64,000 nucleotides of DNA from a bacterium (GCA_040753085.1 JBFMHI010000003.1:2367-66366), one strand, 5' to 3'; shown: positions 4,277 through 47,930, counted from the first letter of the stretch. The notes: generated by a model from the letters alone, not told the origin. Program-made: numbers and translations.

Positions 4277-4373
4277 GTAACCGTTCAGCCACCAAGGCAC
4301 GAAGACACGAAGGGGAAATTATTGATGAATTTTGTGTCTTCGTGTCTTTGTGGCTGAACACTTACAACTTCTT
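4277..4373. repeat. MITE-like hairpin element, family TTTGTAACCGTTCAGCCAC: arms gttcagccaccaaggcacgaagacacgaag / cttcgtgtctttgtggctgaac around a ~25-nt loop
   Basis: arms are reverse complements; related copies at 10116, 20277, 43586, 47829. Confidence 0.7.
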
Positions 4374-4417
4374 TTTTTGGGGGGGGGCGATAAAGAGGCT
4401 ATAATGCTGGGGAAGAA

Positions 4418-4486
4418 AGAAACCAGGTTTCTTGAAGAAACCTGGTTTCTGTTTAACACCACCTCCGGCAGGTTTCAAACCTGCCG
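4418..4486. repeat. perfect 13-bp-stem palindrome gaaaccaggtttc-ttgaa-gaaacctggtttc followed by second hairpin ccggcaggtttcaaacctgccg; identical first palindrome recurs at 63901..63933
   Basis: exact sequence identity of 33 nt at two loci 59 kb apart; no clear U-tract so not called a terminator. Confidence 0.7.
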
Positions 4487-4517
4487 AAGGTTTAGAAGTC
4501 TCATACAGGATAGCCGC

Positions 4518-7500
4518 TTACTTCAATACGACCATCCTCCGGGTCGAAGTCACATCTCCGGCTATTAACTGGTAGAGATAAACTCCGGAGGCCACTTCAT
4601 GGCCATTGGAGTCTTTTCCATCCCAGTAAGCCGCCCGGCTCTTGCTGGTGTAGGTCCCGGCCTCAAGTTTGCCCAGGTCAAGGGTCCTGACCAATTCGCC
4701 GGAAAGGGTATAAATCTTGATGGTTACATTGGTCTCTGCCAGGAGGGCGAAAGGTATCCAGACCTCAGGATTAAGCGGGTTAGGATAGCTCTGCCTCAGC
4801 GTAGTCTTGAGCGGAACCGTGGCGGCCAGTCCCAGGTTAATGGCTGTCTCTAAGAGGGACTTCATCTCTAAGACCTTCGTGGTCTGGGGGCCGGCCTCCA
4901 GGGCAGCCAATACGGCCTTGTAGCCTTCCAGATAGAGGGAATGATCCACGCCGACCAGGCCAGCCATTGCCGGGGCAGGATAGACCCCATCGATGTGGGT
5001 ATGGGTTTTGCCCCAGTTGAGACCAACGATGAGGACATCGGCTGCCTCAACCTTACCGTTGCCATCAGCATCAGCATAAGTGGCGCTTCTGGCGGCAGTG
5101 CCGGCCTCTCCCCACCAGATTACCCGGCCGAGCTTGGCCTGGTCTTCCCAGTCAATCTTAATGGGATAGCGGGCTGGGCCGCTTGTCCCCCAGTATTGAC
5201 CGATAGGCAGGATATCGGCCGCATCAACATCGCCGTCATTGTCTGTATCACCCGGCCAGAGCGATTCAACCTCGGCCGAACAGAAATTGCCCTGAAGCTC
5301 GACCGTATCAGAGCCTGCATTGCCGGCTACATCGGTCAGGAAGGTATAAAATTTATCAGGCTTGGCATAATTCATTACAATAGTGTCGCCTACCGTCACC
5401 TCGGTAGTGGCCTCATCGATCCAGATCTTCAGGACCGCATCACCAATCCATTCGGTCTCGACCTGGCCCCAATTATGTCTGACCCCAAAGGCCGGAGTAT
5501 TATGATCAAATACGGCCAGGGCCGTCTCGATATTGATATTGGTTATGCTGGGGGAATATGTCCCAATTTCCTTCAGATTGAGCATTGGTTCGTTGAAACG
5601 GATGAGCACGTAGTCCTGTTTGCCGGCGCCTTTATCTTCGCCCCGGCTGCCGTATCCGGTGATCTGACTGGCATCTGGATCCTCGGCGGGGCTTCTAAGT
5701 AGACAACTGTTTGATCCATCGTAGGCCACGGCTTCAATAATATAAGGCGGCAGGCAGTCATACTGACCAAAGGAGCCGGTGATCTGCCGGGGGACACAGA
5801 AGGCCAGGGAATCACCCATTGAACTGACAAAGCCTTGAGTTATGGTCTGATCAGCCGGCCGTGCCCAATCACCGACCCTGGGGATATCATTCTGAGGGTG
5901 GCCGGAAAAGACCGCCACGAATTCGGTGTTAGATAGCCAATAACCGGTATCAATGGTTTCCCAGGGGTGAGTTGTGCCGTTTCCATCTTTATCGGTGTTA
6001 AGCGGGAGGCTGGCATTTAGAGCCGCGGTGAGGGTAGCGCTCGTCCAGGTAAGATCAGCCATGCCAGAGATACGGCTGTCCATAGCGGTGTTAAAGGTAA
6101 TCTTCACTGAATCACCGCTCTGCTGTCCGTCGCAATTATCCTGATCAGGCGTGGCCACAATGCTCGTGAGGCAGGGGATGGGTCTCAACCTGATCTCGCC
6201 TGCTGGCGAGTTAGGATCAAAACCAATAGGGGTATTAGTCTCGGTATATCTGGTAATGGCCGGTTTAGTCCCGGCAGGTTTAGGCCCATCAGAGAGACTA
6301 CAACTGATGTTACTGAAGGTCAGCCGGCTGACCACCACCCCGCTTGGCTTGGCGCCTTCCAGGACCTTAAACCTGACCCTGGCTATGGGATAATCAGCGT
6401 AGGTTCTACCTGTCGGGACGCCATACACATAGAGGCCATTGGCGCTTCTATCTGCCTCTTGAGTCACCGAGATAGAAACCTTCTGGGACTTTTCATCCAC
6501 CACCCAGTGAAGGATGGGGTGGATTATGCCGACCGCGGTAGGTGAATCGAGCAGATCGCCCAATTCCACCGAGACCACATCCACGAGGCTGGACTGGGTA
6601 TAATCGATGTCAAAGGCAATACCAAAAAGGATTTCAGTGTCAGCGGCCTCAACTATCGCGGGGGTATCACCGCTTTCGAGGCCGTCTAAGTAGACATAGA
6701 AGTCAGCATAACCACCCGGGGTGGTGGTGATGACCTGGTTGGTTCTGGCGTCAGCCACCCGATTGCTGGGCACATCATCAGACAGATAAAGGGTCCCCCA
6801 CGTGTTGATCGAGCCGGTATCTTGGAGGACAACCTGAATGGTGTCCATCCGGCTGATATTGATGCCGTCATAGACCTGCAGGCCAAAGGTATAAGTTCCA
6901 ATATCAGAGGCGGCGGTTGGGGCGATAAAGCGCAGCTTCTGGGAGTAAGCATCCGAGGTCCCCTCAGGACAGCAATAATCCTCGGCTGCCTGGGTTAAGG
7001 CGTCTAAGGCATAACAGCTTCCAAAGTTAGCTGCAGCCGGCTGGCTGATCAGGCTCCAGCGATAGCAGAGTCGATCAGAGTTGGGGTCGCTGGAACCGGC
7101 GCCGTCGAGGACCACATATTGTCCCAGATAAACATATTTTATTTCCTGAGTCTTGTTGTCGTCTATGTCAGCCGTGGGCGGGGTGTTAATATTGGCCAGG
7201 GCATTAGCTGTGCCGCCGTTTCCAAGCCAGGCGGGAGTCCAATTGCCAGCCGTGCCGCCCACGTTCCAGTAGGCGATGTAGTCACTGACTGTATCGCCGC
7301 GATCATAAAAGCCGGTAGTCGCTCCGGTTTTACCGTTTTCAAAACCGTCGGCATTAGAGGGATCATAGGGGCCGTCTTTGCCATAGCCGGTGCCGGACTT
7401 GGAGACACCCCACCAGTTATCCCTGGCTGGAATAACCGTGGTTTCAGTGGGGTCATCTTTTTCCATGCCGTAATCACAATTGTCCCAGATGGCACACTGG

Positions 7501-9674: not shown

Positions 9675-9810
9675 TTAAAAACCTCCTTGTTTGATTTTTC
9701 GTAACTATTCTTGCCGAATCCTCCCCTTCCCTTCCTGTTGGGGGAGATCATATCCAGTAATCGTTACGGCGGTATCATCTGCCTCATCTCTCTGGCCTCC
9801 TTTCTCTAAG

Positions 9811-10035
9811 GTAACCGTTCAGGTATAGCTGCACGGATTAGCACGGATAAATAACACAGGACAGAAGGCGGAAGTGTAGGGACAGGGCTTGTCCCTGTCC
9901 GTGCTTGTCCATGTCCGTTCCGTAGACGGACAACCACAAGGGTTGTCCCTACAGCCTAAGGACAGACCCTAATCACGGACACGGCTCACGGATTCTCCGT
10001 GTTTCATCTGTGTGCATCTGTGGCTGAACGGTTAC
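9811..10035. promoter_or_regulatory. module flanked by perfect 12-bp IR gtaaccgttcag/ctgaacggttac containing ACGGAT repeats at ~10-bp spacing and the palindrome GGACAACCACAAGGGTTGTCC (compensatory variant of GGGCAACCACAAGGGTTGCCC at 3841-3925)
   Basis: read directly; located between stop of gene 10298..20065 and start of gene 4518..9674. Confidence 0.6.
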
Positions 10036-10115
10036 TCTCTGAGAAATAACTGCCATAGGGTATCAGGTAATGGGTGATCACCGATTACCGATTACCTGAG
10101 TAGTTACTTCAAAAC

Positions 10116-10296
10116 GTAACCGTTCAGCCACAAAGCCACTAAGGCACGAAGAGAATAATGAAATAGCCCACGGATGACACAGATTTTGGCGAATTCTCAC
10201 GGATTTTTTCTAATAAATTTTTATCCGTGTCAATCCGTTTCATCCGTGCAATCCGTATGCTATTATTTGTAATCTTTGTGCCTTAGTAGCTGAACG
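10116..10296. repeat. MITE-like element of the GTAACCGTTCAGCCAC family whose arms (gttcagccacaaagccactaaggcacgaag / ctttgtgccttagtagctgaac) bracket an array of four ATCCGT direct repeats spaced 10-11 bp (ttATCCGTgtcaATCCGTttcATCCGTgcaATCCGTatgc); right arm ends 2 nt before the stop codon of the 3255-aa gene
   Basis: read directly. Confidence 0.65.
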
Positions 10297-10297
10297 C

Positions 10298-13200
10298 TTA
10301 CTTCAAAACTATCATCTTCCTGGCGCCGGTGAAAGACCCGGCTTGGAGCTGGTAAAAATAGATGCCACTGGACACCTCTTCTCCGCTCTCATCTCGGCCA
10401 TCCCAGTAAGCCGCCCGATCCCGGCTTAGATAGCTGCCGGGCGGCAACTTGCCGGCATTGATGGCCTTGACCAATTGACCGGCTAAATTGTAAATGAATA
10501 TAGTTGTTTCAGCCTCCTCAGCCAGCCGAAATGGTATCCAGACCTCCGGATTAAAAGGATTAGGATAATTTTGGAGGAGCTGGCTCCTGGCCGGAACCTG
10601 ATTGGCCAGGGCCAGTTGGATATATTCGGCCAGGACCTCTGTCAGCTCGGTATAAGGCGTATCTTTAAGGACTTCATACATCGCCCGCAGAGGTTCAAGG
10701 TCCAATGGCTGAATGCTCACTTCTGACTGCTGACCCCTGATTTCTGACATCTGACTGCCGGCTTTTGTCTGCTGAGTCTTGTGCCAATTCATCCCAATAG
10801 GCAATATGTCTCTGGCATCAACTATCCCATCGCCATTAGCATCAGCATAAGCGGCCAGGGTAACTTTCCAGGAGGCGGCCGGTTGGGGAGTCCAATTGGA
10901 GGAAGCCGTCTCTCTGGGCGGCCCCTGAGTTTTCCAATACAGGCCAATAGGCAGCACATCCCTGGCATCGACCAGACGGTCATTATTGGTATCTCCCGGC
11001 CAGACCAGAACCTGGGAGACACTGCCTTCCTTGATGATAATCTCACTGCTGGTCGGGAGCAAGGAAATAGACCTATCCAAAGAATCCCTGGCTATTATAT
11101 TTGAGAACACCAGGGTTATTCTTGTCCCGGACGCCAGCCCTTCGGCTATTCTGAAGATCACTTTGGCTATTGATTGGCCTGGTTCGAAGCCGGATACCCC
11201 TTTTGAATGGAGGCCCTTTTTTCTGGAAAGACCTATTTCTATCCGGCCTTGACCCTTTTCAGACTCAAAGAAGACCAGTTTCCCAGGATCAATATCGAGA
11301 AATGGACCGGGACTAACTTCCAATACTTCAACGGCCTCAGAAGGAAAGGCAGAGATTTCAAACACCAGGCCAAAAAGGTCGGATACGGGATGTTGTCTAT
11401 CCCCAACTTCGACTTCCACCTCAAACTCTTCCCGGCTCACCTTGGTGTAAGTTGGTTGATCCCACCTCAATTCCACTTGTGACGAGACTAACGCCTTTAC
11501 TTTAACCGTGGAGGGGGCGGAGAAATATCCAGCGGCATTGGCCACTACTAACTGGAAGATATATTCCCCTGGCTCTTGAGGGGTAAATTTAGGTTGAACC
11601 ACGTTCTCCAGAATGATCCTCTCTGGTCCGGCTGCCTGGGTCCAGAAGTAACTAAGCTGTTCCCCCTCAGGGTCGTAACTGGCTCCGGCATCAAGGATGA
11701 CTAAGGTCTTGACCCCGGTAGTAATGTCTGGTCCGGCTTCGGCAATAGGACTATGCAGGTCTTTGGCCCAGGGGGCATAATCCACGAAATCGCTTACCCT
11801 GTCTCCTGTTCCGGCCGGATTATAAAGCGGTCTGACCGTCGAATCATCTTTAGGTCCTGTTCCAGCGCCCCAATAGTTGCTTTCAGCCTCGATAGTGTAG
11901 GACTCATCCTGATTGAGAAGGCCGAACTCAAGGTTGTCGGTAATTTCACACCCCTTAAGGCGAAGTATCTTTTCCCTGGCTCCAGGATAAGACCGGGGGA
12001 AATCTCTAAAAAGGAGACCAATCCGGTTATTGGTTATCCTGGCCCGGTCAATTTGGATAGAAGCCCCCTTTATTCCTTCTATCCCGATAGTATTTTCCAA
12101 GATATGACAATCCCGGATAATCGGATCCCTCAAGGTGGCCGTAACACCTGCCGCCGCGTATCGAATCCGGCAGTAGCTCAACTCGAGGTCCTCTGGCGGG
12201 GACGTAACTTGGACCGCCACTACATTCTTGCCCTCTCTCAGGTAAGAACCAAGCTGATAGGTTTCTCCTGGATTAAAGGTTATTAGGGAGTCCTCATTTT
12301 TAGCTATTAATTGTCCATTGACGTAGACTTCATAATCGGTCACCGCCGAGATATGCAAGGGGGCCGTGATTTGCCGCGAGATAAGTTTATCTTCACTATT
12401 TCTGAGGGGGGGCGGATCAATAAAGATCTCCTGGCGATAATACCTCTCTCCCCCCGCCTCTATGGCAGGTTTCAGCCAATGGGCTTCTGTTTCAGGGAGC
12501 CAGTCCTTTGGGTCTCTGGGTTGGTCACCGCGGTCAACGGCGGCAGTTTTCCACCCGGAATCATCAAAGTCAACCTGCATCCAATCTGACGGGGCTGCCT
12601 CGCCTTCTAATCTTTTCCAGGAGGCATCGGTGATTACACTCATTTCTCGGTAAAGATGGTAGGTCTCCTCCTTACCCTCACAGCATTCTCCTTCAGACTT
12701 CAATCCCCTGACTGTGAAAGATTCCTGAATAGGCAAGTCTACCAGAAGGGACTGCTTAATTTCCAACTCCACAAAGTGAAGGCCGCTCCAATCACCGGCC
12801 CGGGGGGTAGTGGCCTCACTATCCCCGTTGCTATCTCCACCAAATTCATCATCCTTGAAAGAGGTGAAGGTAATGAGCCTATCGGCTGTTCCGTTGGCCT
12901 TGAGCCTTCCATTGATAGTCAAGGCCCCGGCGCTTTTAAGGATCACCCCAGGGCTGATCCTCCAGGTAGAATCCTCGCCCACCTTCAAGCCGTCCGCCAG
13001 ATAAAAAGGCGCCCCATCCTCTTCCCAGATTACCTCTTCCTTCCCGGTAATATCGCCGCAGATCTTGATGGCATTGTATTGGTTGCCGAATATCTCGTTG
13101 TCCGTAATCAGATAGGCCTTGTTGGCGGTAATGCCGATGGCATAGTTGCGGTTATGGTTAATCAGGTTGTTTCTGATAATAGGCTCGGCTTCCTCCCCAC

Positions 13201-20276: not shown

Positions 20277-20322
20277 GTAACCGTTCAGCCACCTTTGTGT
20301 CTTGGTGTCTTTGTGGCTGAAC
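20277..20322. repeat. hairpin copy of the GTAACCGTTCAGCCAC family (gtaaccgttcagccacctttgtgtcttggtgtctttgtggctgaac)
   Basis: 10-bp perfect stem gttcagccac/gtggctgaac plus extended imperfect pairing. Confidence 0.7.
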
Positions 20323-20371
20323 ACTTACGTCATATTTACCGCCGGGACGGCTGCGCTGCTTACGAACAAAC

Positions 20372-22179: not shown

Positions 22180-22602
22180 AAATTGCACCCCCAATTTTGG
22201 TAACCGGTGATTAGGTACTCAGTAATAACCGATTAGCGCTTTTTCCCTCCCGATAACCTGTTACCGATAACCTGAGCCGTTACGTGGCGGCTAAAAAAAA
22301 AGCTTACCAGCGATAAGGTGACAAGGTTGCTCCTTCTCTTTTGGTAAGCCCGATTATTTTTTTGTCGGCAGCTTTTTAAAGTAGCCCTTTGATCAAGCGA
22401 CTGTTATAACCCCTGATCCCCCTCCCTTCAGGATACCTTTTCTCTCTCAAAGGAGACATCCTTGTCTTACTCGCTTTATCGACAGAACGATAAATAAACT
22501 TTAGGGTGATAATTAGCGGATTGAGGTAATATATAACTGATACGCCAAGCTATTCTGGATTATTCGCCTTTTTTGACCGAGGATAAGTTTCGCGACTTTG
22601 GA

Positions 22603-22649
22603 TAGGCTGAAGACTGACGTTCAATAGCCTTCAGCCTTCAGTCTGAGTA
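22603..22649. repeat. REP-like palindrome ggctgaagactgacgttcaatagccttcagccttcagtctga (GCTGAAGG family)
   Basis: inverted repeat read directly; related to 23651..23730, 27199..27296, 62517..62560. Confidence 0.6.
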
Positions 22650-22650
22650 A

Positions 22651-23613
22651 TTACGGACGGAGGTGGGTTTTCAAAAACGTCACGAGTTGGGGAAAGGATT
22701 TATTCTGGAAGGAATCCCCGAAGGCATGTCCATATTCCGGAAAGGTCACCAGTTTTACCGGCTTCCCCAGATGCAGCAATTCATTTCTGAGCATAAGGCT
22801 TTGGGTGATGGAAACTGTTCGGTCGTTCTCGCCGTGGAAGATCAAAACGGGCGCCGTTAGGAGGTCCAGATGGTAAAATGGCGAGCGGGCCTTAAAGATG
22901 GCCTCGACGGTGGATAAATTCAACCCCTGATTCAGAAACAGAACCAGTTCATCTTCGCGAAGGGAAAAACCGCCCAGTTGTCCGTAATAATTCACGAAGG
23001 CTTTGACGCGGCGGCCCAAAATTTCCGCCGACTGAAGGGCCAATCCGCCGCCCATGCTGTATCCAATAAGGCCCATCCTCTTGGCGTCAACTTTGGGATA
23101 CCTCGAAAGGGATACAAATGCCTGGACAATGTCGATGACTTCTCCTGGATAGGGGTAGGTATGCTGACCTTCCGAAGGGGGATACCCCCGATAATCGGGA
23201 ATGAAAACCACAAACCCTTCGGTGGCCAACGCCTCCAGCGTATCCCTCGTTCCCAATCCCTGAAAGTAACTCGCCGGCGGGTAATAGCCGTGGCATATCA
23301 CTACCGCCGGATAAGGCCCAGCCCCATTTTTGGGTATCGCCAATAGTCCAGAGGTGGTGATGTCCTCACTTCGATATCGAACGCTTTCGATTCTAAATTG
23401 GGGTGAATCTTCCACCACTCGGGCCACGGTTAGGGGGGTGGGCTGAAATTTCTTTTTTGATAGGGTTTCGATGGCCGCCTGTTCGAAGACTGGTGGAAGA
23501 CGGACCTTCCCAAGTTGGGGCGGCGTATCCTGGGCGGCGGTGGGAAAGGACGCACCCACCCCGTACCACATCAATATAAGTCCCGTGAATAAAAAGCGTT
23601 GTCTGCACATCAT
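22651..23613 (-). CDS. secreted alpha/beta-hydrolase (dienelactone hydrolase / S9-peptidase-like fold)
   Basis: signal peptide MMCRQRFLFTGLILMWYGVGASFPTAAQ; nucleophile elbow GYSMGGG, VICHGYY, FHGENDRTV, EYGHAF catalytic-triad context. Confidence 0.8.
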   Translation of the reverse strand: MMCRQRFLFTGLILMWYGVGASFPTAAQDTPPQLGKVRLPPVFEQAAIETLSKKKFQPTPLTVARVVEDSPQFRIESVRYRSEDITTSGLLAIPKNGAGPYPAVVICHGYYPPASYFQGLGTRDTLEALATEGFVVFIPDYRGYPPSEGQHTYPYPGEVIDIVQAFVSLSRYPKVDAKRMGLIGYSMGGGLALQSAEILGRRVKAFVNYYGQLGGFSLREDELVLFLNQGLNLSTVEAIFKARSPFYHLDLLTAPVLIFHGENDRTVSITQSLMLRNELLHLGKPVKLVTFPEYGHAFGDSFQNKSFPQLVTFLKTHLRP

Positions 23614-23650: not shown

Positions 23651-23730
23651 GTGACTACTCAGGTAGATAGGCTGAAGGCTATTGAACTTCAGCCTTCAGC
23701 CTATCTACCTAATCAGTGGCTGAATAGTTA
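23651..23730. repeat. ~80-bp palindromic REP-like element gtgactactcaggtagataggctgaaggc-tattgaa-cttcagccttcagcctatctacct...ggctgaatagttac
   Basis: near-perfect inverted repeat; starts 38 nt upstream of hydrolase start codon. Confidence 0.65.
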
Positions 23731-23914
23731 CGATTTTTGGGATGGTTCACTTTACTGTGAAAGCTTGCGGCTGAGAGGTAGGGTGGGCACCGCCCACCAA
23801 AAAGGCGTAGATGGCGAACAGATTGGTGGGTAATGTCCACCCTACTTCTGCGGAAGGTTAACCGCGCCTAAAGTTTCACAAGAAAATGGATGATTTTGAA
23901 CCGTCCCCGATTTT

Positions 23915-24521: not shown

Positions 24522-24552
24522 GGTAACTACTCAACTTAGTTTTGAGTAGTTA
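24522..24552. repeat. hairpin gtaactactcaa-cttagttt-tgagtagttac (GTAACTACTCAG family)
   Basis: 11-bp perfect stem; same arm sequence recurs at 36607, 41074, 23651, 59741, 62517. Confidence 0.65.
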
Positions 24553-24561
24553 CCAACATCC

Positions 24562-25196: not shown

Positions 25197-25748
25197 ATAT
25201 CTACCCTCTCTCGTATAATATAAATTATGAACGCTCTCGGATAAAACCTGTTTTTGACAGGTTCAGAAGTTAACCTCTATTTATCCGATACTCCTCGATT
25301 ACTCGCGCTGGATCGGGTAGGTCAGGGGCCTTTCAGCCCCATTCCCCCCTAAGAACTGTACATGGAAGTTTCCCCACATACAGCTCAAGCATCTCAAAGG
25401 CGGCCCTTGTGGGACAGCCCGACTGTGATTATTCCTATCACAGCCTTTGCGATACGCATTTGCAGCCTTCTGACTTCCCGTTGAGCTTCCTTCCAGTTAC
25501 AGAAACATGCCGAGCACTCCTATAACTACTTGAATACACTCAGCTATGCGACATCGTGTCGCACCTAACGACAAAGCTCAGCGACGGGGGGAATGCGGCG
25601 GTGACTGAGCGGTGCGAGTGGAGGCGAGCTTGCTCGCCGAAGCGAGCATCCGTTCCAGCCGCTTGTTCGACGGTGCGAAGCGTCCGCTCGAACTATTTTT
25701 ATACAGTTCCGGATAAAAACCTGTAGACAGGCTCCGGTGATTGAGTCT

Positions 25749-27176
25749 TCATCCTTTGATCACGCCCATGGGTTTGAGCCTGGACACCAGACGGCCAATG
25801 CCGGCCCCATCAGTTACTTCAGCTACATCTTCGATATCCTTATACACCCCCGGTGCTTCCTCGGCAATTCCCTTCAGAGAGCCGCCTTTAACATAAATCT
25901 TCTCTTTTTCTAAATCTTCTTTGACCTGACTTCCCCTGAATTTTTTCAGGGCCGCGTGTCTGGAAAGGAGCCGGCCGGCCCCATGCGGGGTGCTGGCGAA
26001 GGTCTCAGCCGCGGCCTTATCGGTTCCAACTAAGAGATAAGAGGCAGTGCCCATACTACCCGGCAGGAGGATAGGCTGGCCGACTTTCTTATAAGCTTCG
26101 GGCACCTCCGGATGTCCCGGGCCAAAGGCCCTGGTAGCCCCCTTGCGATGGACATAGACAGACTTGCGCACACCATCAACTTCGTGTTCTTCCAGTTTGG
26201 CGATGTTGTGGGCCACATCGTAAACCATCCTTAGTTTAAGCCCCCCTCCAAAGACCTCCTGAAAGGCCTTACGAACATTGAAGGCAATAAGCTGGCGGTT
26301 CACCCAACCAAAGTTGGCCGCGGCACTCATAGCGGCGAAATAGTCTTCCGCCAGTTTTGTCCCCAGCGGGGCATAGATCAGTTCCCGATCAGGCAGAGTC
26401 GAAAGGAGATGCGAAAACTCGTCTTCCATTCGTCTCAAATAATCAGTGCAGACCTGATGACCTAATCCCCTGGAACCAGAATGAATCATCACCATTATCT
26501 GGTTTTGGTGCTCAATACCAAAGACCCGGGCAATGCCGGGATCATATATCTTATCCACATATTGCACCTCAATGAAATGATTCCCTGCCCCCAGGGTGCC
26601 TATCTGGTTCTTCCCCCGCTGTTTGGCTTTATTGGAAACCCTGTCCGCCCTGGCGCTCTGCATTGAACCGCCCTCTTCACAATGAGCCAGGTCTTCCTCA
26701 GTAGCATAACCGCGTTTTAAGGCCCATTTTGTTCCGGTATTTAAAAGCTCGTCCAGTTCGGCCTCCCTTATCCTTAGACCTGATTTCGAACCTACCCCCA
26801 CGGGAACATTTCTAAAAATGGCCTCAAGCAACTCCCTGATTTTAGACTCAACCTTGTCTTTACTTAGAGGAGTGGACAAAAGCCTTACCCCGCAATTAAT
26901 ATCGTATCCGATTCCCCCTGGTGAAATACAGCCTTCCTTCGCATCAAAGGCAGCCACACCACCAATAGGGAAGCCGTATCCCTGATGGGCATCAGGCATC
27001 ATAATGGACTGTTTCTGGATGCCTGGCAGCACAGCCACACTGGCCCCCTGCTGCAAGGCGTTGTCTTCCATTAGCTGGGGAAGCATCTTCTCTGAGGCAA
27101 ATAGCTTTAGCGGCACCTTCATCTGGCCGGTTGGTTCTACCATAAAGGTATATTGATCGATCTTCTTTGGCTTCAT
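25749..27176 (-). CDS. rtcB: RNA-splicing ligase RtcB (3'-phosphate/5'-hydroxyl RNA ligase)
   Basis: start taken at MKPKKIDQYTF (GAGGAGGAG RBS 4 nt upstream; ORF-track TTG extension to 27197 unlikely); motifs GYDINCGVR, HSGSRGLGHQVCTDY, NHF. Confidence 0.92.
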   Translation of the reverse strand: MKPKKIDQYTFMVEPTGQMKVPLKLFASEKMLPQLMEDNALQQGASVAVLPGIQKQSIMMPDAHQGYGFPIGGVAAFDAKEGCISPGGIGYDINCGVRLLSTPLSKDKVESKIRELLEAIFRNVPVGVGSKSGLRIREAELDELLNTGTKWALKRGYATEEDLAHCEEGGSMQSARADRVSNKAKQRGKNQIGTLGAGNHFIEVQYVDKIYDPGIARVFGIEHQNQIMVMIHSGSRGLGHQVCTDYLRRMEDEFSHLLSTLPDRELIYAPLGTKLAEDYFAAMSAAANFGWVNRQLIAFNVRKAFQEVFGGGLKLRMVYDVAHNIAKLEEHEVDGVRKSVYVHRKGATRAFGPGHPEVPEAYKKVGQPILLPGSMGTASYLLVGTDKAAAETFASTPHGAGRLLSRHAALKKFRGSQVKEDLEKEKIYVKGGSLKGIAEEAPGVYKDIEDVAEVTDGAGIGRLVSRLKPMGVIKG

Positions 27177-27198
27177 TTTTCTCCTCCTCTCTGGCAAT

Positions 27199-27296
27199 TA
27201 CTCAGGTGGATAGACTGAAGGCTGAAGGCTTTTAGGAATAAATACGGAGAGCAAATGATTGGACTTCAGTCTTCAGCCTTCAACCTATCTACCTGT
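27199..27296. repeat. REP-like palindrome ctcaggtggatagactgaaggctgaagg...cttcagtcttcagccttcaacctatctacctg immediately upstream of rtcB
   Basis: inverted repeat read directly; GCTGAAGG family. Confidence 0.65.
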
Positions 27297-27482
27297 AGAG
27301 TAGAGCACTGGCGCAGTAATAGATCTGTTCTTGGGCTTTCGTTGCACGCAACTACTAACGCTACAACAGTTATCCTGTTTCCAGCACCCCCTATCAAACC
27401 GTGCGTGAGGTTCTCCCTCACACGGCTTGCCGATAACTGAAACAGGGAGCAATTAATTGTCCCCACAAAAGCCGGTACGGAC

Positions 27483-28485: not shown

Positions 28486-28920
28486 CTAAATGTCAAGCAC
28501 CACCTGGAGTGCCCATCCATTTTCATCTTCGCTGATAATCATCTCATTGTAAGTCACCGCCTTGACATGGCCGTGAATATCATAGCCTCTAAGGTTATCC
28601 CCTAACAAACCGGCTTCTAATCGGAAGCCACCACTTTCCTCACGAATGCTTATCTTGCCCACCCCGGCTAAGAGGAAATCCTCGGCATCTATCAAAAAGA
28701 GAAGTTCGGACAGGAAGTCAAACAGCAAAGACTCCTTTCTCCTGGCTTTAATGGAAACATTATGCTCTATCCGGGATTTAACCTTTTCAGGGTCAGTAAA
28801 GAGATTGAAAAGGGCCAAAGCGGCATTACCAAAGGCCTCCTCCAGGGTTTGACCGTAGGCCCGAAATTTGGCATCGGCGGTATGGGCTAAGTATTCGTAT
28901 CCTTTCTTTTTTCGATTCAT
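28486..28920 (-). CDS. archease (RtcB activator/chaperone)
   Basis: YEYLAHTADAKFRAYGQTLEEAFGNAALA archease N-terminal signature; ~144 aa. Confidence 0.85.
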   Translation of the reverse strand: MNRKKKGYEYLAHTADAKFRAYGQTLEEAFGNAALALFNLFTDPEKVKSRIEHNVSIKARRKESLLFDFLSELLFLIDAEDFLLAGVGKISIREESGGFRLEAGLLGDNLRGYDIHGHVKAVTYNEMIISEDENGWALQVVLDI

Positions 28921-28971
28921 AACCGTAACTAATGGTCTGTGACGATTGAAATTGTGGGTAAAGTCTTTTTA

Positions 28972-39227: not shown

Positions 39228-39291
39228 AGGCAGAAGACAGAGGCCCGAGGGCAGATCTCGGTTATCTGACTTCTGGGCTCTGTAAACTAAG

Positions 39292-39717: not shown

Positions 39718-40327
39718 AGATGGGTGGAAGTTCCTTATATTCCTGGGGATTATCACGGCGGTGAGTTATCTGTATTTCTCGTGGTTGAGCCTGATGCCGG
39801 CGGGGGTATTGCTCTTTACCGCCTATTTCTTCAGAGATCCAGAGAGAGAATTGCCAAAGATAGAAGGGGGGTTCTTATCTCCGGCTGATGGGAAGGTAGT
39901 AGAGATAGCCGAGGTTTATGAGGGAGATTTTATCCGGGATCAGGCCCTTAGAATTTCCATCTTCCTCTCTCTTTTTGATGTTCACATCAACCGTGCCCCG
40001 GTGAGTGGTGAAGTAACCTTCCTCCATTATAAAAAAGGCAGATTTGTGGCGGCCATGAAAGCAGCCGCCTCTGAGGTTAATGAAGCCAACTCTATTGGGA
40101 TTGTCCAAGGGGATTTAAAGGTTTTGGTCAAACAAATAGCCGGTGTGATTGCCCGGCGAATCGTCTGTCCACTCCAGCTTAAAGATAAGATCACGGCCGG
40201 TCAGAGGATAGGGCTAATAAGGTTTGGTTCGCGGACTGAAATCTACCTCCCGCCTGAAACCGAGATATGGGTCAAAGAAGGCAGCAAGGTCAAAGGCGGC
40301 GAAACAATATTGGGGGTGTTAAAATGA
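39698..40327 (+). CDS. psd: phosphatidylserine decarboxylase proenzyme (short archaeal-type form)
   Basis: 209 aa, N-terminal TM, autocleavage-site-like FGSRTE (G-S) near C-terminus; overlaps cdaR by 20 nt. Confidence 0.8.
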   Translation: MKIPLAKDGWKFLIFLGIITAVSYLYFSWLSLMPAGVLLFTAYFFRDPERELPKIEGGFLSPADGKVVEIAEVYEGDFIRDQALRISIFLSLFDVHINRAPVSGEVTFLHYKKGRFVAAMKAAASEVNEANSIGIVQGDLKVLVKQIAGVIARRIVCPLQLKDKITAGQRIGLIRFGSRTEIYLPPETEIWVKEGSKVKGGETILGVLK

Positions 40328-41082
40328 AACGAGTCCATATTCTACCCAGCTTACTTACCGCGGGGAATCTATTCTGTGGGATAAATTCCATTCTTTTATC
40401 AGTGGAAGGCAAATACCCTGAAGCGGCCTGGATGATCTTATTGGCTATTTGTTTTGACATCCTTGATGGTCAGATGGCCAGACGATTAAAGGCGGCCAGT
40501 AATTTCGGGCTTCAATTTGATTCTCTCTCGGATCTTGTCTCCTTTGGACTGGCTCCGGCCATCTTGCTCTACTGTTTGGCCTTTCCCCCCTTGAGCAGGT
40601 TGGGTATAATGGTCACCTTCCTCTACAGTGTTTGCGGAGCCTTACGATTAGCCAGGTTTAATTTGATCGTCCCTACGGAGGAAAAAACAGCCAAAGACTT
40701 TGTCGGGTTTCCTATCCCGGCCGCCGCAGGATTTATCGGGGCCGGAGTTCTATTCTGCAATGAGTATAATCTTACGATCCCCTTTAAGTTCTCCTCTCTG
40801 GGGATGATCTTGTTAGCCTATCTTATGGTTAGCCGCCTAAGGTATCCCAGCCTCAAAGAAACCCATTTGTGGGGAAGAAAACCCTTTGTCTATCTGGTAA
40901 CGATAATACTGGGCATAAGCCTGGTTGTTTTACATCCTCCTTTGATGCTTATCCTTATTTTCTCGGCTTATCTATCTTGGGGGCCTTTCAGGTCGGCCAG
41001 GAAAAATTTACATAGGTTCGGGTGGCTGCCCAGGGTCAAAAGCGAGATCGAAGAAAAGAGCCCAATGAAAGGAGCCAGGTAA
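40324..41082 (+). CDS. pssA: CDP-diacylglycerol--serine O-phosphatidyltransferase (CDP-alcohol phosphatidyltransferase family)
   Basis: start ATG 40324 overlapping psd stop (ATGA); motif DILDGQMARRL...GLQFDSLSDLVSFGLAPA = D-G-x2-A-R...G-x3-D-x3-D. Confidence 0.85.
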   Translation: MKRVHILPSLLTAGNLFCGINSILLSVEGKYPEAAWMILLAICFDILDGQMARRLKAASNFGLQFDSLSDLVSFGLAPAILLYCLAFPPLSRLGIMVTFLYSVCGALRLARFNLIVPTEEKTAKDFVGFPIPAAAGFIGAGVLFCNEYNLTIPFKFSSLGMILLAYLMVSRLRYPSLKETHLWGRKPFVYLVTIILGISLVVLHPPLMLILIFSAYLSWGPFRSARKNLHRFGWLPRVKSEIEEKSPMKGAR

Positions 41083-41128
41083 CTACTCGGGTTACTGGAT
41101 ACCTGGGTAGTTACGGAAAAAGATTTCG

Positions 41129-42478: not shown

Positions 42479-43560
42479 AAGACTTCAAACCCGGCGGCTT
42501 AGCGACCGCCATTGGAAGTTTTCCCTATCAGGACCCGGTTAAGGCCTGTCGGCTTATTGGGAAGTATCTACCCGATATGCCAGTCTGGCCCCAGTTGCCT
42601 AAAAGAGACCCGAGGGAGGGCATGTATATCCAGTATAGTGAGGCCATGCCCTGCTGCCGGTATGATGTGGCCAAGAATAAGATATACTTTGATACCACCA
42701 TCAATGTAGCCTCTGAAATGGAGAAATTCTATGAACACTACTTAGCGGATGATTTGGATTACTTTGGCCTAAGCCCTGACTATGCCGCCGGCTTTCACGC
42801 CTTTTTAGAAGCCCTGGAATCCAATAACTTGAAACCCCACGACCCGCAAGCGGGTGCCCTGAACCCGAAACTATCCTTTGTGAAGGGCCATACCACCGGA
42901 CCGATTACCTTCGGTATGACGGTAACGGATGAGGCAGGAAAGGCCATAATCTATAATGATCAAATATTTGAAGCCATATCCTATGGTCTGGCGCTAAAAT
43001 CCCGCTGGCAGTTAGAAAAACTAAGACCCTTCGGGGATCAGGTTATTATCTTTCTTGACGAACCCTATCTGGCTGCCTATGGCTCGGTGGGCATGAATTT
43101 CAGTCAGGCAGGGATTATTAATATGCTAAATAAGGTAATTGAACCTGTCCGGGAAAGTGGGGCAGTGGTGGGCATTCATTGCTGTGCCAATACTGACTGG
43201 TCGATGCTGATGCACACCGCCGCGGATATTATCAGTTTTGATGCTTACAGCTATATGGAAAGCATGACCCTTTATTCTGAGGCTCTTTTGAGCTATCTGT
43301 CCAGAGGAGGCGCGCTGGCCTTGGGTATCATCCCGGCCCAGGATATGGTTCTCAAGGAAGAAATCGAAACTCTTTCCATCCGGCTGAATAAGGCCATAGA
43401 CTCCCTGGTTGAACTGGGCATACCCAAAGCCGATCTGCTGACCCAAACCCTCATTACCCCCTCTTGCGGTCTTGGCGCAGGCACCGAAGAGATCGCCCAA
43501 AAAGCCCTCCAATTGACTCACGGGCTCTCGTCGATTTTAAAGGGTGCCGCCGCCTTATAG
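42475..43560 (+). CDS. cobalamin-independent methionine synthase catalytic-domain (core-MetE-like) family protein
   Basis: ATGA overlap with glmM; ATAIGSFPYQ (cf MetE TTTIGSFPQT), IFLDEPYL (cf IQIDEPAL), IHCCAN and TPSCGLG (cf HMCYS / NPDCGL zinc ligands). Confidence 0.55.
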   Translation: MKDFKPGGLATAIGSFPYQDPVKACRLIGKYLPDMPVWPQLPKRDPREGMYIQYSEAMPCCRYDVAKNKIYFDTTINVASEMEKFYEHYLADDLDYFGLSPDYAAGFHAFLEALESNNLKPHDPQAGALNPKLSFVKGHTTGPITFGMTVTDEAGKAIIYNDQIFEAISYGLALKSRWQLEKLRPFGDQVIIFLDEPYLAAYGSVGMNFSQAGIINMLNKVIEPVRESGAVVGIHCCANTDWSMLMHTAADIISFDAYSYMESMTLYSEALLSYLSRGGALALGIIPAQDMVLKEEIETLSIRLNKAIDSLVELGIPKADLLTQTLITPSCGLGAGTEEIAQKALQLTHGLSSILKGAAAL

Positions 43561-43585
43561 CCGAACGTCTCAGACGGATTCATAA

Positions 43586-43990
43586 ATTTGTAATCGTTCA
43601 CCACAGAGACACGGAGACACGGAGAATGATTTCGACCTGTATGATTAGAAATTACAAACAATGGGTTGAAATCTTTCCTACGCCCTGTCAGGGCTTGACC
43701 TTATGGGATACCATTATTCCGTAGATTGAAATCTACGGCTAAATTCCTTTACGCCTTCGGCGTATAAATAGGATATATTAATAAAACCTGTTCCCTGATT
43801 TTCATCAGGGCAAGTTCTGACAGAACCTGCTCCTGACAGGCTCTGAAGTTCAGGAATCATTATTAAAGCCCGAAGGGCTGTAGTATATGTTAGCCGTAGG
43901 TTTGAACCTACGGAACATTAAATGGGAAATTAATTAAGCCCCGCAGGGGCGAAGGAGAAAATACAGAGGTGAACGGTTACGATTATATCA
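43586..43990. repeat. non-coding block: single-arm copy of the GTAA(C/T)CGTTCACC element (gtaatcgttcaccacagagacacggagacacggagaatgatt, 43586..43631) followed by ~9 unrelated short stem-loops (gccctgtcagggc, ccgtagattgaaatctacgg, tacgccttcggcgta, ccctgattttcatcaggg, gcccgaagggc, ccgtaggtttgaacctacgg, gccccgcaggggc)
   Basis: read directly; left boundary of the high-GC islet. Confidence 0.6.
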
Positions 43991-44077
43991 CTTTCGCCAG
44001 CACACGTCAACTCCTCTAACGCGCTCACCTGGCGCTTCAGGCTTCCCCAGTCGGGCGAGTTCCAGGGGAACTGCGTC

Positions 44078-45781
44078 TCATTGTAGACCGGCGGGCACGC
44101 CCTCGAGGACGGCGCCTGCTGCCAGTTGGGTCCGCGCCTCCAGTACCTGGCGAACCGAAAGCTCGACGGCATCCGGATCTGTCCAGGGGCTCATGATGAA
44201 CGACTTGAGGGCGGCGATGGGAGGCCCCCCCGCGTAGCTGGAATGCCGGTATGCATCCGTCCGGGAAAGAAGCACGCCTTCGCCACGCATCGCCCGATCA
44301 TGGATAAGGTCGAAAATGCTGCGGTTGTAAGCGTTGTGTTCCTCCACCTGCGTGCGGTAACCGGGGTCGGACAGCTCGCGTCGCAGCGCTTCGTCTGCAT
44401 CTACCCCATTCGGATAGACGCGGAAGAGGGTGACCGGCCCATAGTTATAGTCATTCAGCACATTGATAGAGGGATTTCGCTCGAGCCGCTCGCGCAGCAT
44501 CTCCGCCATCTCCACCACGTGGCCGATAAGCACCCGGTAGCCCTGCTTGCCCAACAGCGCGATGTTGGCCAGGGCTGCCAGCGCGCTCGCGCCCGGGCGC
44601 GACGATTCCAGGGTGTAGATGCCGGGATGATAGCGACCGAACTGATAGAGGTAGGGCATCTGCGCCGGGTCGCGGCTGAGCAGGGTCAAATCCTCCCGAT
44701 CTTTGACCAGAAAGACGCTGGAGATATAGGGCGCATAGCCGGTCTTGTGGAAATCGATCCCCAGGCTGTCCGCAAGCGAGAGATCTCCGATGCGCTGCAG
44801 GGAATCCCGCAGGGAGCGCAGCGTCCGGGCATGGAAACCCAGGGGGTTGCTGTTGAAATCGTAATCGCGGAACACGGCCCACGCCCAGCCGATGACCGCG
44901 TCGGCATGGATGTGCGGCCTGTATTCCAGCCGGTATTCCCCGGCGAGCCGGTCACGAAGGCGCACGATCGCCCCCAGGTCATCAATGCCGAACGCATCCG
45001 TAGTGCCCAGGGTCGCGATGATGGCCGCCACCTTTTCCCCCCGCTCGAATAACTGCCGCAAGTGTTCTTCCAGATCAGCGAGCGATATCTCGTTGTCGTG
45101 TGTAGTGGGAACAGTCACCAGGTTCTTCGTTCCCAGCCCCAGCCAGCCCGCTACGTTCAACCGCGAGTAGTGCGCCGCCTCGGAAGCCACGATCTTCAGA
45201 TCCTCACGGATCCCATCCGTCATCGCTCGGCCACCGAGCGCCTTTTCCACCCCGAGCTTGCAGCCGTAAAGAAGCGTGCCGGTGCCGCCAAAGGTGAAGA
45301 CGCCTCCGGCTCGCTGCGGGGCATAGCCGACCAGATCAGAAAACATGCCCACGACCTGCAGCTCGGCCTCCGCAAAGCGGGCAGAATACTCATCCCAGAT
45401 AATGTTCGGATTATAGATGGCGCCAGCCATTACCGCAGTGATACTGGGGATCGTGGTGGGCGGGACGACATTGACCGAGGCGTTCGGGTGCGCCCAGATG
45501 GTCATGCCCCGGCAGTAGTCCACCAGCATATTCGTCGCCTCTTCCACAGAGCACATCTCCCCCGGGAAAGCCTCGCCGAGGCTTATCTCATAGCGCCTTC
45601 CCTGCCCTGCTCCCAGCAGGGGTGCGGCAGATTTCAGGCTATCTACCTCGTCGAGAAAGTGCGAGATGGTGTGGACGAAGTAACCGTCCATAATCGGGTT
45701 AGATACCGGCGTGGGAAAACAGGTCTTGAGTTGCTCCAGAATCGCTGTATAGCTCTGCCCCATGGTGATATCCTTTCTCAT
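44078..45781 (-). CDS. PLP-dependent group II decarboxylase family protein (Asp/Glu/DOPA-decarboxylase fold)
   Basis: ~567 aa from ATG 45781 (AGGAG 6 nt upstream; alternatives 45763 or 45838); SLGIDFHKTGYAP PLP-lysine context; coding GC ~62% versus ~47% flanking. Confidence 0.7.
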   Translation of the reverse strand: MRKDITMGQSYTAILEQLKTCFPTPVSNPIMDGYFVHTISHFLDEVDSLKSAAPLLGAGQGRRYEISLGEAFPGEMCSVEEATNMLVDYCRGMTIWAHPNASVNVVPPTTIPSITAVMAGAIYNPNIIWDEYSARFAEAELQVVGMFSDLVGYAPQRAGGVFTFGGTGTLLYGCKLGVEKALGGRAMTDGIREDLKIVASEAAHYSRLNVAGWLGLGTKNLVTVPTTHDNEISLADLEEHLRQLFERGEKVAAIIATLGTTDAFGIDDLGAIVRLRDRLAGEYRLEYRPHIHADAVIGWAWAVFRDYDFNSNPLGFHARTLRSLRDSLQRIGDLSLADSLGIDFHKTGYAPYISSVFLVKDREDLTLLSRDPAQMPYLYQFGRYHPGIYTLESSRPGASALAALANIALLGKQGYRVLIGHVVEMAEMLRERLERNPSINVLNDYNYGPVTLFRVYPNGVDADEALRRELSDPGYRTQVEEHNAYNRSIFDLIHDRAMRGEGVLLSRTDAYRHSSYAGGPPIAALKSFIMSPWTDPDAVELSVRQVLEARTQLAAGAVLEGVPAGLQ

Positions 45782-46345
45782 GTGCATCTCCTTCTGCATG
45801 GAGAGGAGCCCCTGGAAGCGCTCTAAGCGCACACCCATATTCTACACCATAGCGCCATCCCGTAAACTTGTCTGCGCTTTCGCCAGTGCTGAAGACGAAG
45901 ACGCCGCGCTTGAGCTCGCCCGAATCGGTGGTGAAGCCCCCGCCGTAGTGGCGAGCGGCAGGAAAGCAACAAAGCGGCAGGAATCCGACACCGACCAGGC
46001 GTATTGTCTGAAGGCACGCTATTGACACGGGCCGGACCCCGATCCGGGCCTTGGCGGCTCTAGACGCAGAAGCCTTTAAATGATAAATGATAGAAATTTT
46101 GATTTCAGGGTAATTCGGAAGAAGTGTCATAGAAGTGCCCTCCAGATGTTTTTTTAGTGCTTTGAGCCCTATGGTTTTGGATTATAGTATATAAAAATGA
46201 GTAAGTCAAGTGAAAAGTTGGTTGGTGGTCTTCTTAAATTAAAAAAATATATCAAGAATATATCCATTGAAGAAAGGGTTGAGCCAATCGTTTATAACTA
46301 GGGGGGAACGGCCGTTCGCCCCTAGTTCTGCTGGCTGGTAAGGAG

Positions 46346-46476
46346 GCTACGAATAAAGGTTACAGAGGGAAGGTATCAGGCTGGGACACCAGCGATGGCG
46401 GCTGGCTTTACCAATCACATCTGGAGACTTTCGGAATGGCTTACTCTACCTGCCGTTCAACGTAAGTAGGCCACCA
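46346..46476 (+). mobile_element. copy 2 of the ~130-bp transposase-C-terminus-like repeat (...AMAAGFTNHIWRLSEWLTLPAVQRK*)
   Basis: ~85% identical to 27483..27613; preceded by AT-rich DNA and the nested palindrome ctagggggGAACGGCCGTTCgcccctag (46298..46325). Confidence 0.5.
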
Positions 46477-46610
46477 ACAAATATTGAGAAGATACCTCCA
46501 TAGTGTAGCGTAGGGTATCAGTAGGACAAACGGACAACTGACCAGGAACAACTAAACTTTTGGTTGCAAAAGAAGGATTTATATGATAACATATTTTCAG
46601 GAAGTAAGTA

Positions 46611-46980
46611 ATGACTTGGATCAAGATATGTGGGATTACTCGAATAGAAGATGCCTTAGCCGTGGTTGAAGCCGGGGCAGATGCCCTGGGTTTTATTTTT
46701 GCTAAGAGCCCAAGACGGATTGAACTATCTCAGGCAGTTAGAATTGCCGAGAAACTTCCCCCTTTAGTCAGCTTAGTGGGTGTCTTTCTTGATCAAGGGG
46801 CTCAAGAGATTCAGAAGGTCATTGCCTCCTGTCCCCTCACGGCCCTTCAATTTCACGGGCAGGAGTCCCCTGAATTTTGCCGTGCAGGGAGAAAGAGAGA
46901 GGATTGTTTTCCCAAAAGAGATACTCAAAGATGCCCACATTTGGAGCAGTTGCAACTTTAGAAAAGGTATTATCAGATGA
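46611..46980 (+). pseudogene. trpF: phosphoribosylanthranilate isomerase fragment: N-terminal ~95 codons intact, then frameshift and truncation
   Basis: MTWIKICGITRIEDALAVVEAGADALGFIFAKSPRRIELSQAVRIAEKLPPLVSLVGVFLDQ...LQFHGQESPEFCRA matches TrpF through beta-4; next ~30 codons continue only in +1 frame (ERIVFPKEILKDAHIW) and end at 46980; no C-terminal half downstream. Confidence 0.7.
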
Positions 46981-47243
46981 AAAGAAATGATATAAAACAA
47001 CAAAGGATAGCATTATTAAGCCTTATTAAAGGATATAAAAAAACAAATAAGCTGATTTTTGCTGAGAAAAAAGAAAGACTGTCTCGAATGAGCAAAGAAG
47101 AGTCTCTTGATGAGTATAAAGCCCTTTGTGCTATGTGGGAAGGTATAAGTAATAAAACAGGTATTGAGCGAGTATCAGATTTAAATCTGCAAATTCTTAT
47201 CAGACGGAGACAACAATTCGATAGGGCAGGAAAGGTTAAGTGA
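46977..47243 (+). CDS. small protein, putative antitoxin/partner of downstream nucleotidyltransferase
   Basis: 88 aa, start ATG overlaps trpF-fragment stop; stop overlaps downstream GTG (GTGA). Confidence 0.45.
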   Translation: MKRNDIKQQRIALLSLIKGYKKTNKLIFAEKKERLSRMSKEESLDEYKALCAMWEGISNKTGIERVSDLNLQILIRRRQQFDRAGKVK

Positions 47244-47824
47244 GATATTTGAGTTCTCAGATCAGAGCTATATGCAAAGTTCATAACTTTTTTGACAGTG
47301 CAGGTATCCAGTATGTTTTTATTGGTGGCATTGCACTTCAATGGTGGGGTGAACCAAGATTTACCCGTGATGTGGATGTTACCATCCTTGTTGATTTAGG
47401 CAAGGAAGAAGTGGTCATAAAAAAGATATTGTCAGCCTTTCCACCACGCATCCCTGATGCACTCGGTTTTGCTCTTAAAAATAGGGTTTGTCTGGTTTCT
47501 ACTAAAGATGGTTATGAAATAGATATTTCTCTGGGGATCCCGGGATACGAAGAAGAGGTGATGAAAAGGGCAGTTGAATTTAATGTGGATAAAAGACATA
47601 TTGTCAGAATATGTTCTGCTGAAGATCTCATTATACATAAAGTGGTTGCTGGCAGACCACAGGATTTAAATGATATAGAAGGAATAATCCTGCGTCAAGG
47701 GAAAAGACTTGATATTAAATATATACGAAAGTGGCTCAAGGCATTTGCTGATATTCTGGAAATGAAGGAATTAAGAGAAAGATTTGAAAAACCATGGAAG
47801 CAACTGACAAACAAACCCAAATAA
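47240..47824 (+). CDS. minimal nucleotidyltransferase-fold protein (MenT/AbiEii-like toxin candidate)
   Basis: GTG start with AGGAAAGG RBS; NTase motif FIGGIALQWWGEPRFTRDVDVTILVD (hG[GS]...DhD); 194 aa. Confidence 0.55.
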   Translation: MRYLSSQIRAICKVHNFFDSAGIQYVFIGGIALQWWGEPRFTRDVDVTILVDLGKEEVVIKKILSAFPPRIPDALGFALKNRVCLVSTKDGYEIDISLGIPGYEEEVMKRAVEFNVDKRHIVRICSAEDLIIHKVVAGRPQDLNDIEGIILRQGKRLDIKYIRKWLKAFADILEMKELRERFEKPWKQLTNKPK

Positions 47825-47828
47825 TTTG

Positions 47829-47930
47829 TAACCGTTCACCTCACCACGGAGACACAGAGACACTGAGAAAAATCTAAAATCATTCTCCGTGTCTCTGTGT
47901 CTCTGTGGTGAACGATTACCTTTTCTGAAG
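47829..47930. repeat. full hairpin copy of the GTAACCGTTCACC element: gtaaccgttcacctcaccacggagacacagagacac - loop - tctccgtgtctctgtgtctctgtggtgaacgattac
   Basis: ~38-bp arms, internal GAGACAC repeats; right boundary of the islet. Confidence 0.7.

Follow-up and report, generated by a model that had tools for sequence, protein, structure and literature searches.

The 64,000-nucleotide stretch analysed here (GCA_040753085.1 JBFMHI010000003.1:2367-66366; the window) comes from a bacterium whose FtsZ is nearest to that of Ca. Desantisbacteria. Scattered along it are small palindromic elements that a first-pass annotation had likened to MITEs (miniature transposable elements with inverted repeats) of a family it did not recognise. 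The likeness holds: the elements are small, non-coding and dispersed, with terminal inverted repeats (TIRs), target-site duplications (TSDs) and ends that match insertion sequences (ISs). We now place them as a MITE population derived from the IS66 family, with termini of two types, very probably carrying the ends of IS66-family ISs with a single open reading frame (ORF), of ISBst12-like architecture.

Termini are far more frequent in the window than expected. The terminus GTAAYCGTTCASC gave 10 matches with at most 1 mismatch (0.15 expected), the 16-mer GTAACCGTTCAGCCAC gave 14 with at most 3 (0.28 expected) and the looser motif GTAAYYRYTCAS gave 38 with at most 1 (4.8 expected). About 28 termini are credible, 27 of which start with GTAA and the other with GTGA. 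They fall into two types, type B, GTAA(C/T)CGTTCA(G/C)C (also written GTAACCGTTCAG), and type A, GTAACTA(C/T)TCAG(G/C); certain window ends read GTAAGCGTTCAG. Eleven elements are paired, with matching ends of 12-16 nt, and sizes run from 19 to 391 bp, with no coding capacity. Elements beyond those of the first-pass annotation came from the looser motif together with reading of the sequence. The elements are the following.

3798-3962: MITE of 165 bp, ends GTAACTATTCAGCTAC / GTAATTATTCAGCCAC, arms of CACGGATNNN repeats; TSD not recognisable.
4277-4365: type B MITE of 89 bp, ends GTAACCGTTCAGCCAC / GTAAGTGTTCAGCCAC, arms of CAC(N)AAG(N) octamers.
4269-4276 and 4366-4373: TSD of the 4277 element, perfect 8 bp, AACTTCTT.
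9811-10035: type B MITE of 225 bp, CACGGAT-type arms; TSD TCTCTAAG/TCTCTGAG (7/8).
10057-10107: degenerate type A element, right end GTAACTACTCAGGTAATCGG, arms of GGTAATC heptamers; adjoins the target site of the 10116 MITE.
10116-10301: type B MITE of 186 bp, ends GTAACCGTTCAGCCAC / GTAAGCGTTCAGCTAC; perfect TSD TTCAAAAC.
20277-20328: 52-bp deletion derivative of a 4277-type MITE, diverged right end GTAAGTGTTCAGCCAC; 9-bp duplication GTCATATTT.
22230-22283: solo end GTAACGGCTCAGGTTATCGG, with GATAACC repeats.
22601-22654: copy of the GGCTGAA-arm subfamily, truncated; the TAA stop of a dienelactone-hydrolase-family gene comes from its terminal GTAA.
23651-23731: MITE of 81 bp, ends GTGACTACTCAGGTAG / GTAACTATTCAGCCAC, arms of GGCTGAA heptamers; hairpin z -7.3.
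24523-24553: minimal palindrome of 31 bp, two type A ends GTAACTACTCAA...TTGAGTAGTTAC; the stop of a PIN gene lies 8 nt away.
27194-27232: solo degenerate end GCAATTACTCAGGTGGATAGACTGAAGGCTGAAGGCT of the GGCTGAA-arm subfamily, at the start of rtcB.
32522-32562, + strand: solo left end GTAACTATTCAGCCCC with a CAAAGACACAAAAACACTAAG arm.
36607-36625: palindrome of 19 bp, GTAACTACTAAGTAGTTAC, flanks GGAAGGCA/GAAAGGCA (7/8); its GTAA supplies the ruvC stop codon.
41079-41114: palindrome of 36 bp with type A ends; its GTAA supplies the stop codon of a CDP-alcohol phosphatidyltransferase gene.
43590-43980: type B element of 391 bp, ends GTAATCGTTCACC / GTAACCGTTCACC, CACGGAGA repeats in the left arm; no TSD.
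47828-47919: type B MITE of 92 bp, arms of CAC(N)GAGA octamers; no TSD; hairpin z -10.5.
49200-49255: degenerate solo end GAAACCGTTCAGGAAC, in the ftsA-ftsZ spacer.
49394-49509: type A element of 116 bp, right end GTAACTACTCAGGCATCC, left end degenerate, arms of GATTACC heptamers.
59739-59750, - strand: solo type A terminus GTAACTACTCAG, immediately upstream of the probable mraW/rsmH start codon.

Reading the window sequence directly, we found every copy that the first-pass annotation had listed, and its arms of short internal repeats resolve into tandem units (CACGAAGA, CACGGAGA, CACGGATNNN, GGCTGAA and GGTAATC). It had also placed the copies at gene ends, and every credible terminus is indeed intergenic or overlaps a gene's last codon. 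Its limits stand for 9811-10035 and are replaced by 4277-4365, 10116-10301, 20277-20328 and 47828-47919 for four other copies; the first of these had been extended to 4373, taking in 4366-4373, the target-site duplication outside the element. A supposed single arm at 43586-43631 proved to be the complete 391-bp element, with its right end at 43968-43980, and a degenerate copy given at 32516 is present as a solo end that starts at 32522 with GTAACTATTCAGCCCC. The copies listed were mostly type B, and the family is larger than that list.

Some arrangements among the copies are worth recording. The target site of the 10116-10301 MITE directly abuts the end of the older type A element (window 10036-10115). 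Two GGCTGAA-arm copies in the same orientation, 22601-22654 and 23651-23731, bracket the dienelactone-hydrolase-family gene at 22651-23613; the third, at rtcB, is solo.

Target-site duplications bear on the kind of transposition. We pooled window pairs with paired elements from other genomes and took shifted flanks as controls: flanks were at least 7/8 identical in 25 of 51 paired elements and in 0 of 204 controls, none of which exceeded 6. The window itself contributes two perfect 8-bp TSDs, one 9-bp duplication and two at 7/8, and TSD sequences vary (AACTTCTT, TTCAAAAC, GTGTAGTT, ACGTTATG and others). The first-pass annotation had suggested 2-bp TA/TT duplications, as would be left by Tc1/IS630-type MITEs such as Correia or Nezha, and the T-rich sequence TTTGTAAC before several copies can be read as a TT or TA duplication. 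However, the duplications are 8 bp long and arbitrary in sequence, a length that rules the IS630 origin out statistically, and the ends match IS66-family ISs, IS630-family ISs having stood outside the direct comparison; we give this origin next to no chance.

Inverted repeats of IS66 begin with GTAAGCG and its direct repeats are 8 bp, GTAA ends with 8-bp repeats being the hallmark of the family (PMC11946415); ISDge4, a single-ORF member of the ISBst12 group, has the TIR GTAACTGCTCAGCA and an 8-bp direct repeat (PMC12898284). The first-pass annotation had proposed looking for an IS with matching terminal inverted repeats, and single-ORF IS66-family elements provide the match. An IS66-family copy on Geobacillus plasmid pHTA426 has ends GTATCTATTCAGCCC / GTAACTATTCAGCCCG with GACGAGTT flanking both sides, and ISBst12-like metagenomic relatives of its transposase share the consensus end GTAACT[AG]CTCAG (82 ends) and 8-bp TSDs. 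Two left TIRs recur in the window at 16/16: GTAACTATTCAGCCAC of the L209 IS at 23716-23731 and GTAACTATTCAGCCCC of the P0027 IS at 32522-32537. The 16-mer GTAACCGTTCAGCCAC occurs exactly (16/16) in a Chromatiaceae metagenome-assembled genome (MAG; L078), ~115 bp upstream of a decayed transposase gene of IS66 type that matches Pfam DDE_Tnp_IS66 at 8e-17.

Intact relatives of the decayed gene, ~1,600 proteins of ~530 aa usually on ~1.8-kb contigs, form a second single-ORF subgroup. Intact ISs of 1757-1775 bp from it have one ORF each, ends GTAACCGTTCAGCCCC, GTAACCGTTTAGCCCC and GTAAGCGTTTAGCCCC, and perfect 8-bp TSDs; the best end matches to GTAACCGTTCAGCCAC on intact multi-copy ISs reach 15/16. 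Complete plasmids carry ISs of this subgroup too; WP_014133085 (Methylotuvimicrobium plasmid) and WP_100918359 (Thiodictyon pTs485) are transposases belonging to it. Ends of the GTAACCGTTTAGCCCC and GTAATCGTTTAGCCCC kinds belong to Thiodictyon and Methylotuvimicrobium plasmid ISs, which are listed here with two others.

Methylotuvimicrobium alcaliphilum 20Z plasmid IS: 1676 bp, ends GTAATCGTTTAGCCCCC, perfect 8-bp TSD GTCGAGCT.
Ca. Thiodictyon syntrophicum plasmid IS: 2067 bp, ends GTAACCGTTTAGCCCCCCCT, 20/20 between arms, perfect 8-bp TSD CGCCGGCC.
Thiothrix fructosivorans plasmid IS: 1640 bp, ends more diverged, perfect 8-bp TSD CAATTGGT.
Stanieria PCC 7437 plasmid IS: ~1661 bp, ends GTAACCGTTCATTCCCC, no TSD seen.

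Type B ends match the ~530-aa transposase subgroup and type A ends the ISBst12-like ~490-aa subgroup, so the window holds two terminus types, one per subgroup. The two sets of transposases are about 23-26% identical, and both exceed the NCBIfam IS66 cutoff. Proteins ending in 'SG', considered as the source of an exact GTGGCTGA right end, gave GTAACTGCTCAGCC ends instead. In many ISBst12-like ISs (L128-L143), the transposase stop TGA falls within the inverted repeat on the right (...GGCTGA followed by GCAGTTAC); the gene's last codons thus overlap the transposase binding site, which may help explain the strong conservation of TCAGCC in the ends.

These matches suggest a mechanism in which the elements would retain only the ~12-16-bp TIRs of single-ORF IS66-family ISs. 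An IS66-family DDE transposase, whose gene would lie elsewhere in the genome or have since been lost, would bind both ends and insert the element with an 8-bp staggered cut, the repair of which would yield the 8-bp duplication, and the interiors would be free to vary. The terminal GTAA offers a ready-made TAA stop to genes entered in one frame, and the genome would be expected to hold a cognate IS66-family transposase gene, intact or recently decayed, bounded by GTAACCGTTCAGCC ends. Several points weigh against this account. No intact IS with exact GTAACCGTTCAGCCAC at both ends was recovered, and no IS66-family transposase lies within the 64-kb window; we infer the transposase partner in the source genome, and predict that it mobilises the elements in trans. 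Moreover, about half of the window copies have no recognisable TSD, and these may be old or rearranged through recombination between copies.

The family extends well beyond the window. Our scan for exact termini covered one genome per species, with counts that are the matches listed and thus lower bounds; by our own arithmetic ~277 chance matches are expected in 596 Gb. Since most single matches would then be due to chance, the analysis kept to loci whose ends are paired and to enriched genomes. Paired copies with TSDs occur on at least 11 contigs of a Nitrospinae MAG and at least 7 of an Omnitrophica MAG, as well as in MAGs of Poribacteria, Chloroflexota, Anaerolineales, Methylococcaceae, Desulfobacteraceae, Ca. 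Desulfatibia, Lachnospiraceae and 'bacterium Yes70-08' (L010), whose giant gene is in part 79-80% identical to that of the window. The first-pass annotation had named uniqueness to this window as what would refute its family; with paired copies in many other genomes, the motif is not so confined. The outer 16 nt are conserved between genomes and the interiors are unrelated.

Searches of other kinds gave less. No PLSDB plasmid carries a 4277-type MITE, the six matches in viral contigs are all single and uninformative, and looking for long TIR pairs in the surroundings of the genome matches gave no IS. ORFs recurring beside solo ends, considered as transposases, turned out to be MatE and sugar nucleotidyltransferases. 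The Nitrospinae and Omnitrophica MAGs, the most MITE-rich genomes, come from a common Rifle sample set (MHDQ01, MHFT01; L005-L009, L013-L016 and others), and the Omnitrophica interiors bear a widespread hairpin repeat of the GTCATTCTGAGG...GAAGAATCTC type.

Copying between loci and insertion polymorphism point to movement of the small elements themselves. The 4277 and 20277 elements share the diverged right end GTAAGTGTTCAGCCAC, which indicates copying from a MITE master, and subfamilies in the Nitrospinae and Omnitrophica MAGs comprise many near-identical copies with different TSDs. In Yes70-08, a MITE is flanked by AGATTTAT/AGATTTGT; the matching site of the window has a single AGATCTAT without an element and is thus an orthologous empty site. 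The ftsA-ftsZ spacer carries different elements in the window, in a relative with 91% FtsZ identity and in Yes70-08. At the position of the 49200-49255 end, relatives L244 and L245 hold different MITEs; the 49394-49509 element is absent from the corresponding L244 spacer, as is the 47828-47919 element downstream of ftsZ in L244.

It is conceivable that the elements are instead wrecks left in place by full-length ISs that lost their interiors, never having moved as small elements. Solo ends and 19-36-bp palindromes could stem from such internal deletion after insertion, but the interiors have no similarity to transposase genes and recur, in the two MAGs, at different loci with different TSDs, and the 20277 copy bears the end mutations of the 4277 copy. 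No transposase remnants were seen in the 64-kb window or in the MITE loci. We regard wrecks as highly unlikely.

The elements form near-perfect hairpins when folded (z from -2.9 to -10.5; -47.8 kcal/mol and z -8.9 for 4277-4365), with interiors made mostly of tandem 7-10-nt units phased on CAC. Nothing in Rfam matched the elements above threshold, and their mir-like Rfam matches are hairpin artefacts. Strong hairpins lie where genes converge and at their 3' ends, and T-runs come after some of them (past 4365, for example). They could also point to host-selected repeats resembling repetitive extragenic palindromes (REPs) or bacterial interspersed mosaic elements, or to terminator hairpins, with recombination, RAYT or another route not involving a DDE enzyme as the means of spread. 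Conservation is confined to the outer 12-16 nt rather than the whole stem, however; 8-bp TSDs mark DDE transposition and are lacking in REP elements, which are short conserved palindromes associated with a Y1 (RAYT) transposase, and the ends are identical to IS66-family TIRs. Such an origin is barely credible, and we retain that of IS66-derived MITEs.

The 391-bp element differs in that its interior is an array of small hairpins from another repeat family. This second family, common to 36680-36960 and 43620-43950, consists of short hairpins with GC stems set in arrays (for example, CCGTAGATTGAAATCTACGG and TACGCCTTCGGCGTA). Its copy inside 43590-43980 contains two inverted Rfam Acido-Lenti-1 matches, at 43719-43764 (+) and 43866-43913 (-), both below threshold (33.6 bits against a gathering cutoff of 37, E ~7e-6).

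One part of the arms is shared across genomes. A module, GCCAC(N)AAG(N)CAC(N)AAG, lies directly inside the type B end in the window, in relative L244, in the Nitrospinae MAG and in two Desulfobacterota MAGs, and is not present in the parent ISs. Between the window and Nitrospinae L021, 36 of 39 nt are identical by our own count (BLAST, 92.3% over 39 nt). The simplest reading of the common module is horizontal spread of one MITE lineage. It might otherwise have a role at the RNA level, or offer the transposase, or some host protein, a second array of binding sites. We consider it rather unlikely that the module is the functional part of a distinct 'tandem-repeat-armed' class of IS66 MITEs and that, separately, the GTAA end is selected as a portable cassette of stop codon and 3' hairpin.

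The elements also bear on the genes they adjoin. The TAA ending a long reading frame is supplied by 4 of the 31 termini tested, and Pfam identifies all four frames as real genes. Frames of at least 200 codons end at only 0.66% of the TAA triplets in the window, and ~0.2 such stops would thus be expected among the termini tested. The genes, the first encoding a protein with a type IX secretion system (T9SS) tail, are these.

10298-10300, - strand: stop of the gene for a 3255-aa T9SS-tailed protein, from the right end of the 10116 MITE.
22651-22653, - strand: stop of the dienelactone-hydrolase-family gene, from the 22601 copy.
ruvC: stop from the 36607 palindrome.
CDP-alcohol phosphatidyltransferase gene: stop from the 41079 palindrome.

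Stop donation may reflect tolerance of insertion in last codons, possibly because the element end brings its own stop, or it may reflect target preference. In the giant gene's frame, the older type A end beside the 10116 MITE likewise reads ...AAG TAA; a MITE thus carried the stop of this gene even before the newer insertion. The 47828-47919 element begins 3 nt past the stop of a nucleotidyltransferase ORF. The long hairpins are placed where they could serve as 3' RNA structures. Together, stop donation to four genes and insertion differences among close relatives show these elements to be active in remodelling the ends of genes in this lineage.

Other features of the window deserve mention. 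A cyanobacterial host, guessed from the heptamer repeats, is ruled out by the T9SS-tailed giant proteins and by the FtsZ affinity. The RNase P RNA gene (60632-61143, - strand) is 512 nt long against a 367-nt model, with a helix lengthened by a GTAGACA-heptamer hairpin (insertion at ~60900-61010). Insertions of short tandemly repeated repetitive (STRR) sequences are known in cyanobacterial RNase P RNA, and the window insertion resembles them, although its host is not cyanobacterial. The heptamer ATGCTCG and its complement make up long tandem arrays at 34577-34651 and 35809-36118, which are inverted relative to each other around a cohesin-domain ORF (34755-35573) and enter the 5' part of the ruvC-containing ORF (35813-36610; RuvC domain, residues 106-254). 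Two Rfam matches to group II intron domain V/VI, at 25312-25388 (-) and 27295-27430 (-), score 58.8 and 41.4 bits, both above gathering, and flank the RtcB RNA ligase gene (ORF 25749-27197, -); no reverse transcriptase or maturase ORF was seen. Near rtcB, in an odd arrangement, are an archease gene (28486-28920), a ParE toxin and a PIN gene.

We found no report of IS66-derived MITEs or of the window terminus in the open-access literature. The family is an undescribed and very widespread one of an ordinary element kind, unsurprising in principle. With its recognition, a repeat strewn through the intergenic DNA of several poorly known candidate phyla gains a name and a likely transposase partner, and annotators can mask it and avoid mistaking it for RNA genes or regulatory sites. 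IS66 thereby joins the IS families known to spawn MITEs. The mechanism of IS66 transposition is still poorly understood, and the 16-bp end, should it suffice to mobilise an element, would make a convenient minimal substrate with which to study it.

Among known systems, the ISBst12 group (ISBst12, ISDge4 and the pHTA426 'ISGka4-family' copy) shares the GTAAC..TCAGC ends and the 8-bp duplication (PMC12898284), and its TIRs are identical or nearly so to the type A termini; the window elements differ in having no transposase gene and in their size (19-391 bp against ~1.5-2.1 kb), and their type B ends fit the second, more distant single-ORF subgroup. Three-ORF IS66 elements (IS66, IS679 and ISEc8; tnpA-tnpB-tnpC) have the same DDE_Tnp_IS66/transpos_IS66 transposase family, ends starting with GTAAGCG and 8-bp repeats (PMC11946415), whereas the end-matching ISs carry a single ORF, with neither tnpA nor tnpB seen in them. 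Like the window elements, Correia (Neisseria), Nezha (cyanobacteria), MITEAba12 and MITECca01 are small, non-coding, intergenic and hairpin-forming, with TIRs and duplications; they are mobilised in trans and can alter gene ends. Their parents are IS630, IS5 or IS982 rather than IS66, the duplication here is 8 bp, and, unlike known bacterial MITEs, the window family has a terminus that is common across phyla with unrelated interiors. Finally, the STRR heptamers of heterocystous cyanobacteria are tandem units that build hairpins between genes and even within the gene for RNase P RNA. The heptamer hairpins of the window occupy the same two settings, but in a host that is not cyanobacterial and as the arms of TIR-bounded mobile elements.

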